Shown: positions 1,599 through 6,710, numbered from the stretch's first letter. The stretch: DNA of 10,601 bases from a virus (IMGVR_UViG_3300027376_000018); one strand, 5' to 3'. Program-made: numbers and translations. The notes: generated by a model from the sequence alone, not told the origin.

Positions 1599-1655
1599 GG
1601 CTATAGTATACCGGAGTAGCCACCAATTTAGCCAGTATTTATGGAAAAATTTACG
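1599..1655 (-). promoter_or_regulatory. copy 1 of a conserved ~55-bp promoter-like motif (sense GTAAATTTTTCC..TGGCTAAATTGGTGGCTACTCCGGTATACTATAGCC-ATG)
   Basis: One of three near-identical elements, each filling one of the only three intergenic gaps. A -10-like TATACT sits 6 nt before the ligase ATG. An upstream A/T tract overlaps the stop of the preceding gene. Coordinates are +/-2. Confidence 0.55.
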
Positions 1656-2058
1656 GCTTCCGCCAGACCAGCACCGGCTTGGGGAAGGAAACAACCGGCT
1701 GCGGGGCCTTGGGGGAAAGCCGCTTCACAGCGTCCCTAGCATAGGGCAGGAAGGGGTCATTGTTGGCCTCAGGGGACTCTAGGAAGATGCGGAAGTAGTG
1801 CAGGGCATCCACGGGCTCCCCACGGAACTCGTACCACACCCCTAGCTGGTAGGCAGCGTCATTGCTGCCCAAGGCAAAGGCGATGAGATAGAAGTCCTCT
1901 GCATGGGGATTGTGCTTCTCTTCCAGCACCCGGCCCATATTGTAAAGGGTCATGGGGTTGGTTGGATTCTGTTTGAAGGCCGCACGGAACTTCTCCTCCG
2001 CCGCGTCGTATCTTTGCAGAGCGAACAGGTCGCAACCTTGCTCAAGCAACGTGCTCAT
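1651..2058 (-). CDS. Sel1/TPR-like repeat protein, 135 aa
   Basis: Helical repeat signature DAAYQLGVWYEFRGEPVDALHYFRIF plus an earlier LYNMGRVLEEK repeat. Start overlaps the upstream stop (ATGA). Confidence 0.5.
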   Translation of the reverse strand: MSTLLEQGCDLFALQRYDAAEEKFRAAFKQNPTNPMTLYNMGRVLEEKHNPHAEDFYLIAFALGSNDAAYQLGVWYEFRGEPVDALHYFRIFLESPEANNDPFLPYARDAVKRLSPKAPQPVVSFPKPVLVWRKP

Positions 2059-2426
2059 TGCCGTGGGTTCTTCCCCGAAGGTGGAACCAGTTTCTCCACC
2101 GTGATTTCCTTGCTCCCAGAGCCCTTGAACAACAGCCGCTTAGCTGTCTCAACCTCTTGCCGAGCCCGGTCATCCATGGTGGTCACCGGGCAGATTTCCC
2201 ACTCCCGTTTCCTGAGGGCCATCCAAACCGTCTTGCCAACAGGATAGGTGTCAATGAATTCACGGTTGGGGTCTTCAAATCGCAACCGCGTCTCCACACC
2301 ATTATGCACCAAATGTCCAAGGTGGCAGATTTCCACAGAGCCATACTCGTACGAGCACACGATGTAAACGTGCATGTCGCCCTTGGCGATGCTCAGGTAT
2401 AGCTCTTGTGTCAGTCCGTATTCCAT
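2055..2426 (-). CDS. hypothetical protein, 123 aa
   Basis: Full ORF with SD GAGGGG 4 nt before the ATG. Its stop overlaps the next start. Confidence 0.55.
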   Translation of the reverse strand: MEYGLTQELYLSIAKGDMHVYIVCSYEYGSVEICHLGHLVHNGVETRLRFEDPNREFIDTYPVGKTVWMALRKREWEICPVTTMDDRARQEVETAKRLLFKGSGSKEITVEKLVPPSGKNPRQ

Positions 2427-2432
2427 AACCCC

Positions 2433-2525
2433 TCAGCAGGAACAAGAGAAGAAAGAACCGCGATGGTCTTCTTCCACTTTCTCCTCGGTGACAATCTCGT
2501 AATACTCCCAGAATTCGTCCGGCAC
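2433..2525 (-). CDS. proposed small ORF, 30 aa, acidic with C-terminal FFSCSC (GTG start); not in the ORF track
   Basis: It fills the only otherwise unexplained 109-nt gap. Sense reads TGA(stop of the 140-aa gene)-AGGTGAG-AGC-GTG, and its TGA overlaps the SD of the next gene. It is the acidic C-terminal part of the track's 2433..2726 frame. Confidence 0.35.
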   Translation of the reverse strand: MPDEFWEYYEIVTEEKVEEDHRGSFFSCSC

Positions 2526-2535
2526 GCTCTCACCT

Positions 2536-2958
2536 TCAAGCAGCCCACCGAAGCAGAGATATTCTCCCCAACTGCCACGACGACGGGATTCGAGCCAGTC
2601 CTTTCTCAGAATTCTGAAAGACCGGAACATCCGAGTTCGACACAGCTTCAGGAAACGCGGGGTGCGACCAGACGTGCCGCAAAGACGTAATCTGACGAGG
2701 ATACACCACCAGCCAGAAACGTTCACCCGGAAAAACGACGCCCTTCAGGAAGGGGTCAACAATGCCGAGAGGGTTATCGGATTTCGATGCCCTGCCATCC
2801 GGCAACAGTCCGACATCTTCGCCGGGGTTGAGATGCATTGCGGCGATGACGGGTTCCACAGCCAAGTGAATGGCGTCACGTCCAGCTTTGTCATCAATGA
2901 TGGTGCCCAGTGTTTCAAGTGCGTCGGTTGCCACCGAACGCTTGTCCCCGTTGCTCAT
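2536..2958 (-). CDS. hypothetical protein, 140 aa
   Basis: Full ORF with protein-like composition (DAIHLAVEPVIAAMHLNPGEDVGLLPDG). SD AGGTAAGG before the ATG. The upstream gene stops 4 nt away. Confidence 0.55.
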   Translation of the reverse strand: MSNGDKRSVATDALETLGTIIDDKAGRDAIHLAVEPVIAAMHLNPGEDVGLLPDGRASKSDNPLGIVDPFLKGVVFPGERFWLVVYPRQITSLRHVWSHPAFPEAVSNSDVPVFQNSEKGLARIPSSWQLGRISLLRWAA

Positions 2959-2961
2959 ACC

Positions 2962-4845: not shown

Positions 4846-5088
4846 CTACTCTATTTCCCGCAATGTTGACTTAAAAATTTCCAACCTTTCGTATACTCTG
4901 GCTTCGGCTTCGATGTAATCCCAACGCCGGTCATCATCGAACTCCAAGAACATCTTGAAGTTGTCGGAGTCCCACTGAACCACGACGCCGTTTACCCGGA
5001 CCTCAACTACTCGGGCTCCGGAGGACTGGTTGGGCAACCAGTAAACCCGGTCGCCCTCCATCAGCGTGTGTTGAACCGCTGGTCTCAT
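4846..5088 (-). CDS. hypothetical protein, 80 aa
   Basis: Full ORF. Its start shares a base with the upstream stop. Confidence 0.5.
   Translation of the reverse strand: MRPAVQHTLMEGDRVYWLPNQSSGARVVEVRVNGVVVQWDSDNFKMFLEFDDDRRWDYIEAEARVYERLEIFKSTLREIE
4866..4897 (+). promoter_or_regulatory. truncated inverted copy of the promoter motif on the plus strand (TTGACT-TAAAAATTTCCAA-CCTTTC-GTATACT-CTGG)
   Basis: It keeps the AAAAATTT(T)CCAA block and the GTATACT.CTGG block of copy 3 but lacks the central ~27 bp. It lies inside the 80-aa gene and points opposite to all genes. Confidence 0.25.
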
Positions 5089-5357
5089 TACTCACGTCCC
5101 AGTGATTCGCGAACGAGGGAACGGAACTCGGTCTTCTGCGCTTCCTTCTCGTTGAGGTAGTCGAGTGCTTCCTGCCAGATGGGGTCTTCGGACTCAGGTG
5201 AACCTTCAATACCCCAGTTCCACGCAATCACGTTGTCGTGCTCATCCAGCACGCGGAGAGCGGCCTGAGTCTCACTGGGCCGGTCGCTACGCTCCGCATA
5301 CATGTGGAGGTTCGGGTTGAGAATGAGTGCCTTTTCCTTTGCGTCTTTAGAAATCAC
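5088..5357 (-). CDS. hypothetical acidic protein, 89 aa
   Basis: Full ORF. 11-nt overlap with the upstream gene. Confidence 0.5.
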   Translation of the reverse strand: MISKDAKEKALILNPNLHMYAERSDRPSETQAALRVLDEHDNVIAWNWGIEGSPESEDPIWQEALDYLNEKEAQKTEFRSLVRESLGRE

Positions 5358-5556
5358 AGCTTTTTACTCCTCTCTCGAATGCCTTGCGGTTCTTCTCTTG
5401 CGTATCGGCCACGCCACGGTCGTATGCCTTCTGCATCTCGGCTTGCAGCATGACGGATACTTGGTGACGGAAGTTGCCAGCACCGATGGAGATAATCAGC
5501 TTCCCCATCCACTCATCCAGCAGTTCGGTGAAGTTCTGTTTCTTTGGTTTGCTCAT
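5347..5556 (-). CDS. hypothetical protein, 69 aa
   Basis: Full ORF with ATGA overlap to the upstream gene. Confidence 0.45.
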   Translation of the reverse strand: MSKPKKQNFTELLDEWMGKLIISIGAGNFRHQVSVMLQAEMQKAYDRGVADTQEKNRKAFERGVKSCDF

Positions 5557-5777
5557 GCTGACGCCGCCCGTTCCTTAAGCGTGTTGTTGACGTGGTAGAT
5601 AACCGCATCGTTGCTGCCGGTGAATCCTTGGAAGACTCCATCCAGCTTGTAGACCACACCGCGAAGGCCCTTGGTGCCACGAATAGCCGTGATGGCCGGG
5701 GCAGCTTCTACTGTGTGTCCCTCGAAAGGAAGTTTCTTCCACGTTCCGATTTTGAAGTTTCTCAGTTCACAACCCAC
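5553..5777 (-). CDS. hypothetical protein, 74 aa
   Basis: Full ORF with a 1-nt stop/start overlap upstream. Confidence 0.45.
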   Translation of the reverse strand: MGCELRNFKIGTWKKLPFEGHTVEAAPAITAIRGTKGLRGVVYKLDGVFQGFTGSNDAVIYHVNNTLKERAASA

Positions 5778-6052
5778 TAGAGTTCCTCCTGATGCGGCTT
5801 TGTCCAGTCGCGTTGATAGTGAATGTAGTCGATGAGAAAAACCTTGCTCACGCAGTCAGGCATCCGGGCGAGAATTTTCTCAGCTTCTTCCTTGGTGCTG
5901 GTGTTGCGGATGGTATCCGTGTACCATTCGCCGAGTTCCTTCTCCGCCTGTTCAAGCGACATCTCATGCCGCCAGAATGCCTCGGCGAGAAGCTTCTCTT
6001 CGAGCGTCACCATCTGTCGTGACTTGTGGATTTGGTCTTGAATCCTGTCCAT
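5777..6052 (-). CDS. hypothetical protein, 91 aa
   Basis: Full ORF with a 1-nt stop/start overlap upstream. Confidence 0.5.
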   Translation of the reverse strand: MDRIQDQIHKSRQMVTLEEKLLAEAFWRHEMSLEQAEKELGEWYTDTIRNTSTKEEAEKILARMPDCVSKVFLIDYIHYQRDWTKPHQEEL

Positions 6053-6639
6053 TAGCGTAGCTCTCCACGCTCGTACATTCCGAGCGTTTCTTCAATCTTG
6101 ATTACCATGGACTTGTAGAACTTGATTTCGTAGGTGGTCAGCTTGTAGGTCTTCGGCTTCAACAGTTCCTGCTGGAGCAGCCACATCGCACGAGGAATCA
6201 TCCGATAGATGCGCTCCGAGTGCAGCTTGCACACGGCGAGGAACCGGGACTTTGCCAAATCGAAGGCTGGCTTGACTTCATTCTTCTCGATTTGACGGAT
6301 GCCTTCTACCCTCTCGCGTTCTAGTTTAGCGAGGTACTCATAGAGCCCGAGACGGGCATTCTCAAGTTTGCGGTAGAGTTCTTCGTTGTAGGATTGGAAG
6401 TGCTTCACGCACTCGACGCCGACCGGGGCAACTTCACCGTTCGGTCCCCAGATGAGGAGCATGTAGCGGACGGGGTGACCGCATGTGCATTTGCCGTTTC
6501 CGTACTCTAGGAGGTCGATTACCTCGTCACGGAACTCATACTTCGAGGGGTCACCAAGCTTCTGAACGAACTTGCCAACGATTTCTTGGAAGTTCTCAAG
6601 CTGCCCGATTTTCTTCTCGATACCCTCGGCGGTCGTCAT
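6052..6639 (-). CDS. hypothetical Cys/His-motif protein, 196 aa (motif KCTCGHP...APVGVEC)
   Basis: First gene after promoter copy 3. SD GGGAGAAACC before ATG 6639. An in-frame ATG at 6651 lies 6 nt after TATACT and is a possible leaderless start. The track's 6678 start runs through the promoter motif. Confidence 0.55.
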   Translation of the reverse strand: MTTAEGIEKKIGQLENFQEIVGKFVQKLGDPSKYEFRDEVIDLLEYGNGKCTCGHPVRYMLLIWGPNGEVAPVGVECVKHFQSYNEELYRKLENARLGLYEYLAKLERERVEGIRQIEKNEVKPAFDLAKSRFLAVCKLHSERIYRMIPRAMWLLQQELLKPKTYKLTTYEIKFYKSMVIKIEETLGMYERGELR

Positions 6640-6651
6640 GGTTTCTCCCAT

Positions 6652-6710
6652 GCCAGTAGTATACCGGGATGACCACAATTTTAGCCACTAATTTGGAAAA
6701 TTTTTACGTT
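6652..6710 (-). promoter_or_regulatory. copy 3 of the conserved promoter-like motif (sense GTAAAAATTTTCCAAATTAGTGGCTAAAATTGTGGTCATCCCGGTATACTACTGGC-ATG)
   Basis: Same architecture as copies 1 and 2. The stop codon of the upstream 64-aa gene is embedded in the A-tract. Confidence 0.55.

Follow-up and report, generated by a model that had tools for sequence, protein, structure and literature searches.

Several described promoter systems bear comparison with the repeated element analysed here. The early promoters of phage T4 ('uber' promoters, with UP, −35, TGn and −10 elements) are used by the host sigma-70 polymerase, and the T4 middle promoters combine a MotA box with a −10 element and are used through sigma appropriation by AsiA and MotA (PMC2988021). 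The MotA box, (a/t)(a/t)(a/t)TGCTTtA, is located 12 ± 1 bp upstream of the −10 element, with its centre at −30 (PMC2988021). The UP element of the Escherichia coli rrnB P1 type has the consensus AAAWWTWTTTTNNNAAA, with subsites near −52 and −42 (PMC2412878). Leaderless promoter–gene junctions are known from lambda PRM–cI and are abundant in Actinobacteria and Deinococcus-Thermus (PMC3160421, PMC3898074). Among the mapped jumbo phages, phiKZ has no leaderless transcripts (PMC8244752), and the UTRs of AR9 are 26–491 nt long (PMC5312081).

In this study, we analysed three repeats in a 10,601-nucleotide stretch of viral DNA (hereafter, the window), together with related loci. The comparison suggests that the three repeats form one family of bacterial-type promoters with a sigma-70-class layout, a reading to which we assign a probability of roughly 0.7.

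Occurrence and position of the three copies

All genes of the window (10.6 kb) are on the minus strand, and the motif is therefore read on that strand. Three exact matches to the 11-mer CCGGTATACTA are present in the window, at 1604–1614, 4091–4101 and 6657–6667, always on the minus (coding) strand, whereas by arithmetic the two strands of 10.6 kb should yield only about 0.005 exact 11-mer matches. Allowing as many as two mismatches gave five matches, a number reached by none of 200 shuffles. Scored with a position weight matrix derived from related sites, the three copies reached 45.7–60.5 bits, and the next best site in the window 4.8 bits. These values bear out the earlier claim, made from the sequence alone, of three copies in front of gene starts. 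The shared parts were likewise confirmed, namely, the A/T tract, which contains the stop codon of the preceding gene in all three copies, the TGGCTA box, which reads CTGCCG in copy 2, the offset of 20 nt between TGGC and CCGG, and, for copies 1 and 3, the distance of exactly 6 nt between TATACT and the ATG that follows it. The parts of each copy, and one further candidate, are as follows.

1636–1653, minus strand: copy 1, UP-like A/T element, TAAATTTTTCCATAAATA (−55 to −38), with the TAA stop of the upstream TPR gene
1629–1634, minus strand: copy 1, −35-like box TGGCTA (−36 to −31), followed by AAT
1605–1611, minus strand: copy 1, G at −13 and −10 hexamer TATACT (1610–1605)
1596–1598, minus strand: copy 1, predicted +1 at the first base of the start codon (ATG) of the ATP-dependent DNA ligase (gene 798–1598), predicted leaderless
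4123–4140, minus strand: copy 2, UP-like A/T element, AGAAAAATTTGTAGAATA, with the TAG stop of the upstream gene
4116–4121, minus strand: copy 2 (the most divergent copy), −35-like box CTGCCG, followed by AAA
4092–4098, minus strand: copy 2, G at −13 and −10 hexamer TATACT (4097–4092)
4072–4085, minus strand: copy 2, predicted +1 at G 4085, which opens the Shine-Dalgarno sequence GAGGAG (4085–4080)
3547–4074, minus strand: copy 2, target gene for a 175-aa macro-like protein, with ATG at 4074–4072 and a predicted leader of 11 nt
6689–6706, minus strand: copy 3, UP-like A/T element, TAAAAATTTTCCAAATTA, with the TAA stop of the upstream gene
6682–6687, minus strand: copy 3, −35-like box TGGCTA, followed by AAA
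6658–6664, minus strand: copy 3, G at −13 and −10 hexamer TATACT (6663–6658)
6637–6651, minus strand: copy 3, predicted +1 at the A of the first ATG (6651–6649), followed by GGAG (6648–6645)
6639–6637, minus strand: copy 3, in-frame second ATG, which aligns with orthologue N-termini
6052–6651, minus strand: copy 3, target gene for a 195/199-aa CTCGHP protein
4843–4848, minus strand: possible degenerate fourth site, TAGACT with G at −13 and an ATG 7 nt downstream

The fourth candidate, which would serve a 90-aa gene (4563–4835), has its A/T tract out of register, and its 4.8 bits alone are not significant. The three copies had been said to occupy the only intergenic gaps; this proved incorrect, as the depositor's gene calls include further gaps of 109 bp (2427–2535) and 36–37 bp (3510–3546 and 9433–9468), and the motif is absent from all of these.

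Outside the window, the motif is similarly placed. The source scaffold (33.8 kb) carries six exact copies of CCGGTATACTA, and the matrix, which was trained on TATACT sites, found 34 matches in 12 related loci (187 kb), all 34 on the coding strand, these site counts being qualified by that training and by the related genomes being non-independent samples. GTATACT was found 45 times on the coding strand versus once on the opposite strand. In the window and its relatives, every copy is on the coding strand, at most about 32 nt 5′ of a gene start. The motif is not randomly placed but restricted to one strand and associated with gene starts.

These observations bear on the view that the element is a non-promoter dispersed repeat, which might be an operator, serve recombination or homing, or signal translation at the RNA level in transcripts reading through it. 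In agreement with such a repeat, its core has the palindrome GTATAC, its copies run into gene ends, and no terminators were found before the three window copies, so that the element would also be transcribed from upstream. However, the flanks of GTATAC are not palindromic in the relatives (CCCG, CAGG or TTGG on the left, T and variable bases on the right), and folding of the motif as RNA gave no significance (z = −0.76, −0.78 and −1.81 for the three copies). Moreover, what is kept is a constant spacing between the hexamer and a purine, after which ATG or a Shine-Dalgarno sequence follows; this indicates start-site rather than ribosome-binding-site geometry, and the register of the UP-like element also fits a promoter. 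We thus consider a dispersed repeat of this kind very unlikely. A search for Rfam matches in the window yielded none.

In view of the missing terminators, the window copies are probably internal, additive promoters in a co-directional gene array with read-through, and the proposal that they define transcription units was too strong. Upstream of the Ku copy, a strong double hairpin ending in a T-run is present (z = −4.8), a further point in favour of a promoter.

Layout and class of the probable promoter family

We analysed the conservation of the element as a logo of 32 non-identical sites from the window and related loci. In the upstream part, a run of A extends from −55 to −51, T occupies −49 to −47, and A recurs from −43 to −41. 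This part is followed by a −35-like box with the consensus T-R-K-Y-Y-A-A-A at −36 to −29 (opening with T at −36 and closing with A from −31 to −29), by C at both −16 and −15, and by G at −13 in 32/32 sites. The −10 hexamer is TATACT in all 32 sites, a count subject to the same qualification as the site counts above, and matches TATAAT at five of six positions and the TAnnnT pattern. The base at −1 is a pyrimidine (C/T) in 31/32 sites, and that at +1, 7 nt after the hexamer, is always a purine (A in 28, G in 4). In distant relatives, the same layout is kept with the −10 variants TAGAAT, TAGTAT and TAGACT.

The UP-like element matched AAAWWTWTTTTNNNAAA at a mean of 9.8 of 14 positions, compared with 5.5 in control windows. 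Matches of at least 11/14 were found in 11 of the 32 sites but in only 0.2% of controls, and in 22/32 sites the consensus ends with its final A at −41 or −40, the best register being near the E. coli one. Such a register suggests an RNA polymerase made up of several subunits, alpha among them. With the spacer set at 18 nt, the −35-like box matched TTGACA at a mean of 3.1 of six positions (maximum 4/6) versus 1.46 for random hexamers, and a generic sigma-70 scan, in which at least 4/6 is required in each hexamer, does not call these sites. An extended −10 element (TGn, T at −15 and G at −14) was considered and rejected, as −15 is C in 25/32 sites and T in 2/32, while −14 is G in 22/32. The unusual conservation outside the canonical elements, at C −16/−15, G −13 and A −31 to −29, counts against a plain sigma-70 reading.

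Taken as a promoter family, the repeats are well supported by sequence comparison, and by its layout the element is of an ordinary kind save for its odd −35 region. The sequence-only reading had recognized a promoter-like element, and its position on the coding strand throughout, its proximity to gene starts and its bacterial promoter layout uphold that part, but not the view that it is of a non-sigma-70 type. In particular, the lack of a sigma-70 −35 element was overstated, because the TGGCTA-type box matches about 3/6 at the 18-nt spacer; given this match, the unusual holoenzyme it invoked is possible, yet not required. In the mechanism suggested by this layout, a bacterial multi-subunit RNA polymerase, most likely the host enzyme with a primary sigma-70-family factor, would bind the promoter. 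The alpha C-terminal domains would touch the UP-like A/T element (−55 to −38), sigma region 2 would bind G(−13)-TATACT, and the box at −36 to −29 would provide a weak or atypical −35 contact, with transcription predicted to begin at the purine 7 nt 3′ of the hexamer.

Two other polymerase systems are poorly compatible with this layout, as the earlier reading had also judged. The long, highly conserved consensus and its strict orientation would agree with use by a single-subunit (T7-like) RNA polymerase encoded by the phage, and ACTATAG in copy 1 resembles the T7 core. Nevertheless, ACTATAG is not kept in the other copies, and the conservation is tripartite, its blocks being spread over −55 to −7 around a spacer that varies, instead of a contiguous segment of about 17–23 bp over −17 to +6; positions +1 to +6 of the 32 sites hold only ATG or Shine-Dalgarno sequence. 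Features characteristic of multi-subunit polymerases are present (the UP-like register, TAnnnT, pyrimidine(−1)/purine(+1)), and a single-subunit polymerase was seen in none of the sampled loci, making a T7-like promoter highly improbable. In a sigma-54 promoter, TGGC would have to serve as the −24 element and be accompanied by another at −12; TGGC followed after about 10 nt by TGG has a loose likeness to TGGCAC-N5-TTGC. However, the −12 GC doublet is missing, its expected position (10 bp from the −24 GG) being occupied by GG or GT, and TGGC is replaced in relatives by TGTT, TAGC or TATC. Sigma-54 would also leave the invariant G-TATACT and the fixed N6 to ATG or Shine-Dalgarno unexplained, and no enhancer-binding activator is evident, so that we give this assignment almost no credence.

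Predicted start sites and leaderless genes

The bacterial-type promoter reading places +1 directly on a start codon in many members of the family. An ATG lies exactly at +1 in 21/32 non-identical sites, while at any other offset no more than three sites have an ATG; the sites without a +1 ATG mostly start directly at a Shine-Dalgarno sequence, or have short leaders. The spacing TATACT-N6-ATG is kept with differing N6 in Ku promoters (7 lineages) and ligase promoters (5 lineages), and rIIA orthologues keep TATACT-N6-AGGAGAG. A Shine-Dalgarno core was found in none of the three TATACT-N6-start genes of the scaffold, compared with 40 of the 65 other genes. Because N6 varies at a kept spacing and conservation of the ligase begins at its very first residue (MIQAELLTE), leaderless mRNAs are supported, and leaderless expression of the ligase from copy 1 is a well-supported prediction. 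The proposal of leaderless translation, made for the first genes behind copies 1 and 3, is therefore supported for the ligase; for copy 3, the start is ambiguous between the +1 ATG and the second, GGAG-preceded ATG, located 12 nt further on. If this geometry is true, about two-thirds of the family would give leaderless mRNAs starting with AUG, including those for the ligase and possibly the CTCGHP protein in the window, and most other transcripts would open with a Shine-Dalgarno sequence, as for the macro-like gene and rIIA, or carry leaders not exceeding about 30 nt.

The family appears to be carried by a clade of uncultivated huge phages of about 400 kb, in front of many early-type genes. 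The related contigs are 330–435 kb long and come from peat/bog and soil metagenomes, and their early-type region encodes rIIA/rIIB, Ku, DNA and RNA ligases, the macro-like protein and many small ORFs.

Possible readers of the −35-like box and comparison with described promoters

The −35-like box clusters by genome and not by orthologous gene, contrary to the expectation for a sigma region 4 that is universally conserved. An alternative keeps the start site but has the box (−36 to −29) read by a phage-specified factor, which might be an activator that appropriates sigma in the manner of T4 MotA/AsiA, or else a sigma or region-4-like protein of the phage; the copies would then be middle-class promoters. 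The box clusters by genome together with the segment from −16 to −13 (permutation p ~0.001), as in TGGCTA of the source scaffold, TGTTCA of Ga0311358 and TAGCCA of Ga0480578, whereas the spacer, discriminator and distal UP part cluster by orthologous gene, a pattern that fits co-evolution with a trans-acting reader better than gene conversion of whole promoters. The effect is modest, however (0.76 versus 0.63 identity, in a permutation test that ignores phylogeny), and TGTCCA, TAGCCA and TGGCTA are mixed within some genomes, indicating that the reader tolerates degeneracy. An excellent −10 element without a TTG-type −35 but with an alternative upstream box also recalls the T4 middle promoters, the drivers of rIIA/rIIB (PMC2988021); yet the box is not a MotA box, from which it differs in sequence and in ending 15–16 bp rather than 12 ± 1 bp from the −10 element (PMC2988021).

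The same phages have a separate, more canonical promoter type (CTTGCAG, 15–16 nt, TAGTAAT), found upstream of a vault-protein-like gene in three genomes, and two promoter classes may therefore exist. Next to Ku, one relative encodes a GerE-type HTH protein and a 201-aa protein whose sole domain is sigma-70 region 4, but no homologue of the latter was found in what was sampled of the other relatives. Among the 61 other proteins of the 34-kb scaffold, which is part of a genome of roughly 400 kb, neither MotA nor AsiA was found, and no transcription factor, sigma or anti-sigma was recognized (PHROGs, Pfam). On balance, a phage-specified reader of the box appears unlikely, although it deserves more weight than the other alternatives.

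Read as a bacterial-type promoter family, the element shares with the T4 early promoters its many near-identical copies, co-oriented before early genes, an UP element with an excellent −10, and extra conserved positions beyond the canonical hexamers (PMC2988021). Unlike those promoters, it has T-R-K-Y-Y-A in place of a good −35 (about 3/6 to TTGACA, 18-nt spacer) and, with TATACT as −10, C at −15 (25/32) and an invariant G at −13 in place of TGn, and most of its predicted transcripts are leaderless or Shine-Dalgarno-initial. With the T4 middle promoters it shares a stringent, excellent −10 below a non-canonical upstream box, a place in front of DNA-metabolism genes as well as rIIA/rIIB, and possible UP-type contacts (PMC2988021). 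The box in this family, in contrast, differs in sequence and, at 15–16 bp from the −10, has its centre near −32/−33.

In the UP-like element, the A-run, the T-run ending at −47, the gap of 2–3 nt and AAA at −43 to −41 resemble the rrnB P1 type, in the same register to the −10 (PMC2412878), but the distal A-run is shorter and shifted by 2–3 nt, CC is preferred at −46/−45, and the alpha site is putative. As in the described leaderless junctions (PMC3160421, PMC3898074), TAnnnT lies 6 nt 5′ of the start codon, +1 is the A of AUG, and a Shine-Dalgarno sequence is lacking; unlike those, a single, highly conserved promoter family is involved here, in genomes whose other genes mostly have strong Shine-Dalgarno sequences (40/65). 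In contrast to the mapped jumbo phages phiKZ and AR9, leaderless mRNAs are predicted for these huge phages, from sequence alone.

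Promoter-like element in the window, its source scaffold and related phages

All plausible genes of the window lie on the minus strand, and the motif was therefore read on that strand. Three exact matches to the 11-mer CCGGTATACTA were found (copies 1, 2 and 3), each copy overlapping the stop codon of the gene before it, with the next gene beginning immediately afterwards.

Exact CCGGTATACTA matches in the window and the genes that follow them
1604–1614, minus strand: match in copy 1
798–1598, minus strand: gene after copy 1, ATP-dependent DNA ligase (Pfam DNA_ligase_A_M)
4091–4101, minus strand: match in copy 2
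3547–4074, minus strand: gene after copy 2, 175-aa protein of phrog_2072, a family with a macro-domain annotation in some phage records
6657–6667, minus strand: match in copy 3
6052–6651, minus strand: gene after copy 3, 195/199-aa protein with a conserved CTC(G/D)HP motif

By calculation, approximately 0.005 exact matches are expected in 2 × 10.6 kb, compared with the three found; when up to two mismatches were allowed, the window held five matches, a number reached by none of 200 shuffles. With a weight matrix built from related sites, copies 1–3 scored 45.7–60.5 bits and the next window position 4.8 bits. The repeat described in the sequence-only reading is thus real, and it extends to related phages. 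The copies do not, as had been claimed, occupy the only intergenic gaps, as motif-free gaps were also found at 2427–2535 (109 bp), 3510–3546 and 9433–9468. The first of these, between a 140-aa gene (phrog_11912 homologue) and the next gene, is overlapped by a mechanically called 97-aa GTG ORF (2433–2726), and may therefore reflect a truncated or mis-called gene end.

The window belongs to the ENA scaffold WILH17-1_scaffold_78 (34,123 bp), of which 33.8 kb was covered. This scaffold encodes rIIA/rIIB, Ku, two ligases, a major-vault-protein-like protein, PTH2, RF-1-domain and M24 proteins and many small ORFs, with a single coding strand throughout. It carries six exact copies of the 11-mer, all on the coding strand: one before each of the three window genes, and the others before Ku, rIIA and a 172-aa gene. 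Homologues of rIIB and the ligase (60–72% identity) are carried by contigs of 330–435 kb, suggesting that scaffold_78 derives from a clade of uncultivated huge phages; judged by these homologies, the source is a member of that clade (genomes of ~400 kb). Most contigs with close homologues come from JGI metagenomes, which we take to be of peat/bog and soil.

No close relatives were found in GenBank phages or IMG/VR. Megablast against 50,697 phage records gave no close DNA match to the whole window, the 195-aa protein and the ligase as single-protein queries retrieved no relatives from IMG/VR, and all IMG/VR relatives found with the rIIB profile were at most 43% identical. A scan of IMG/VR, a collection that does not include the source phage, for the motif TGGNNNNNCCGGTATACTA gave only single matches, on 50 contigs, as chance would allow. 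In GTDB genomes, the rIIB-bearing contigs were all distant (at most 46% identity) and scattered over unrelated phyla, so that the host cannot be inferred from them.

The early-type region of scaffold_78 and its relatives pairs Ku with a LigD-like ATP-dependent ligase (end-joining) and contains an RNA ligase, a histidine phosphatase, PTH2, an RF-1-domain protein and an M24 aminopeptidase (RNA repair/translation rescue), together with rIIA/rIIB and, in the relatives, a Tpt1/PTS_2-RNA gene. Downstream of Ku lies a 145-bp non-coding stretch (L053:3809–3953, L053 being a part of scaffold_78) that contains a T-loop-like GGTTCGACTCC and ends in a GC-rich hairpin; ARAGORN detected no tRNA here or elsewhere in scaffold_78, and Rfam gave no match to this stretch.

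Conserved layout and predicted start site

Across 187 kb from 12 related loci, the matrix gave 34 matches, every one on the coding strand, and GTATACT occurred 45 times on that strand versus once on the opposite one; weaker family members were likewise recovered. The distance from a site to the called start of the gene downstream never exceeded about 32 nt.

Logo of 32 non-identical sites from these loci (+1, predicted start purine 7 nt after TATACT)
UP region: A-run at −55 to −51; T at −49 to −47; CC preference; AAA at −43 to −41
Box, −36 to −29: T at −36; then R, K, C/t, Y; A at −31, A/g at −30, A at −29
Spacer: −23/−22 G-rich
−17 to −13: T at −17; C at −16; C at −15; G/c at −14; G at −13 in 32/32
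−10: TATACT in 32/32; purine at −6
Start: pyrimidine at −1 in 31/32; purine at +1 in 32/32 (A in 28)

The UP-like A/T block (−55 to −38) matched the E. coli UP element consensus, AAAWWTWTTTTNNNAAA (PMC2412878), at a mean of 9.8 of 14 positions, compared with 5.5 in control windows, and its register is close to that in E. coli. The hexamer at −36 to −31 (18-nt spacer) matched TTGACA at 3.1 of six positions, against 1.46 for random hexamers. The motif showed no significant RNA fold and no match to an Rfam family. Distant relatives (rIIB ~40% identical) keep the layout, with TA(A/C)CC(A/G)AA as the box and TAGAAT, TAGTAT or TAGACT as the hexamer.

ATG occupied +1 to +3 in 21 of the 32 sites, and any other offset was seen in at most three. 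The strongest evidence on the predicted start site comes from comparison of orthologues. TATACT-N6-ATG is kept before Ku in seven lineages (N6: ACTGAC, ACACAC, GTGTGT, ATTGGT, AACGGT, ATGGAT and ATAAAT) and before the ligase in five (ATAGCC, ACAGAC, GTAGGC, ATAGGT and GTAGAC), while rIIA orthologues keep TATACT-N6-AGGAGAG, in which the Shine-Dalgarno sequence opens at +1. This conserved distance from the hexamer to the purine start points to promoter geometry, which implies predicted leaderless mRNAs for the ligase and Ku. In the scaffold, three genes have their start codon 6 nt after TATACT, and none of them has a Shine-Dalgarno core; such a core precedes 40 of the 65 remaining genes.

The sequence-only reading had proposed leaderless first genes after copies 1 and 3. 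For the ligase (copy 1), the layout kept in five lineages, the lack of a Shine-Dalgarno core and an orthologue alignment that runs from residue 1 (MIQAELLTE) lend this good support. The motif can also be used to mend start-codon calls: in a related locus, the ligase was called from a position ahead of the conserved MVQAELL start (L234:10001–10822, P0143; LIRYTIGMVQAELL...), giving a false N-terminal extension that runs into the promoter. For copy 3, an ATG does stand at +1 of the predicted transcript (AUGGGAGAAACCAUG), but a second in-frame AUG aligns with the N-termini of orthologues, two of which appear leaderless by layout and a third of which has a short Shine-Dalgarno leader; the start is thus ambiguous between the two AUGs. 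A dual-start layout, with a 5′-terminal AUG, GGAG and a second AUG 12–15 nt on, was found at two sites, namely, window 6637–6651 (ATGGGAGAAACCATG, ATGs in frame) and L234:8484–8501 (ATGGAGGAAACACCAATG), and one such transcript could be translated in either leaderless or Shine-Dalgarno-led mode. Copy 2 has a predicted 11-nt leader beginning GAGGAG.

Polymerase, candidate factors and transcription units

A multi-subunit bacterial polymerase carrying a sigma-70-family factor is the probable reader, as indicated by the UP-like register, the TAnnnT hexamer, the early-type genes and the pyrimidine(−1)/purine(+1) start. Neither a sigma-54 nor a T7-like promoter fits the 32-site logo, and a mismatch to both had been noticed from the window. 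A sigma-S-type promoter would need C at −13 and does not fit either, G being invariant there. A palindromic operator was rejected on the asymmetric flanks of GTATAC in the relatives.

The sequence-only reading also raised an unusual holoenzyme behind the family, to which we give a probability of about one in five. An alternative to the plain sigma-70 reading draws on two observations. First, grouping is by genome for the box together with the −16 to −13 segment (p ~0.001) but by orthologous gene for the spacer, discriminator and distal UP part (p = 0.002–0.008), so that only recognized elements drift in concert within a genome; the box reads TGGCTA in scaffold_78, TGTTCA in Ga0311358 and TAGCCA in Ga0480578. 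Second, in three genomes a different promoter-like core precedes the vault-like gene, consisting of CTTGCAG/A (a TTG-type −35), 15–16 nt and TAGTAAT, with the same kind of A/T tract (AAAAATTTTCC-like) before it and an approximately 40-nt leader with a Shine-Dalgarno sequence after it.

Second promoter-like type, upstream of the vault-like gene
L053:7271–7336 (scaffold_78)
L057, upstream of 15926 (related locus)
L221, upstream of 3273 (related locus)

This second type may mark a different temporal class, and the box and −10 family beside it would resemble the T4 early/middle split. The vault-like gene itself (window 9469–10601, minus strand; full gene L053:7337–9964, 875 aa; MVP_shoulder E = 6.5e-23, Vault_3) is kept in all close relatives (818–875 aa).

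The box at −36 to −29 might be, rather than a degenerate −35, the target of a co-evolving, lineage-specific phage factor that redirects a sigma-70-type holoenzyme, a reading that we regard as unlikely; candidates for such a factor would be an activator and a sigma-region-4-like protein. Among the 61 other proteins of scaffold_78, PHROGs and Pfam revealed no transcription factor. In L056, from a 405-kb contig relative, two extra genes flank Ku (L056:11564–11908 and L056:13150–13755). One encodes a GerE/LuxR-type HTH protein; the product of the other (201 aa) has a sigma-70 region 4 as its sole domain and shares approximately 50% identity with that region of primary sigma factors. Neither gene occurs in the sampled parts of the other relatives, and tblastn found no homologue of the region-4 protein in scaffold_78 or the sampled parts of other loci. 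If a phage factor does act at the box, it would be a functional analogue of T4 sigma appropriation, unrelated in sequence, and would define a middle-gene regulon of largely leaderless mRNAs in a huge-phage family.

Only the Ku copy has terminator-like hairpins upstream (z = −4.8, T-run): between rIIB and Ku (L053:2633–2740), two strong tandem hairpins (−43.5 kcal/mol), the second followed by CTCCTTTTT, likely form an intrinsic terminator immediately before the Ku copy of the promoter. No minus-strand terminator was found before any of the three window copies, which thus probably serve as internal promoters that supplement read-through transcription, and not as the strict unit borders first proposed.

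Comparison with known phage systems

Comparative sequence evidence gives good support to the promoter reading and to the predicted leaderless ligase mRNA. On this evidence, the elements form a probable family of phage promoters that carry an UP element, and many of these promoters are predicted to give leaderless mRNAs. This family provides a sequence-based transcription map for an uncultivated ~400-kb phage clade, predicting promoters, start sites and corrected start codons. Drift of the genome-specific box against an invariant −10 offers a concrete handle on how these phages direct RNA polymerase, and the high predicted share of leaderless or Shine-Dalgarno-first mRNAs informs on the translation apparatus of the host.

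It is already well established in general that phages use strong, repeated promoters with UP elements and that some of these are leaderless. The closest analogues are the T4 early promoters, which likewise have extra conserved positions (PMC2988021); compared with T4 middle promoters, the present box differs from a MotA box, as defined there, in its sequence and also in its spacing (PMC2988021). Leaderless phage transcripts are generally known (PMC5312081). However, of the giant phages with transcripts mapped to date, phiKZ showed none (PMC8244752), and the UTRs of AR9 span 26–491 nt (PMC5312081). The high predicted share of leaderless or Shine-Dalgarno-first mRNAs sets the present clade apart from both phages, and the predicted abundance of leaderless mRNAs is, together with the genome-specific box, the more notable feature of this promoter family.
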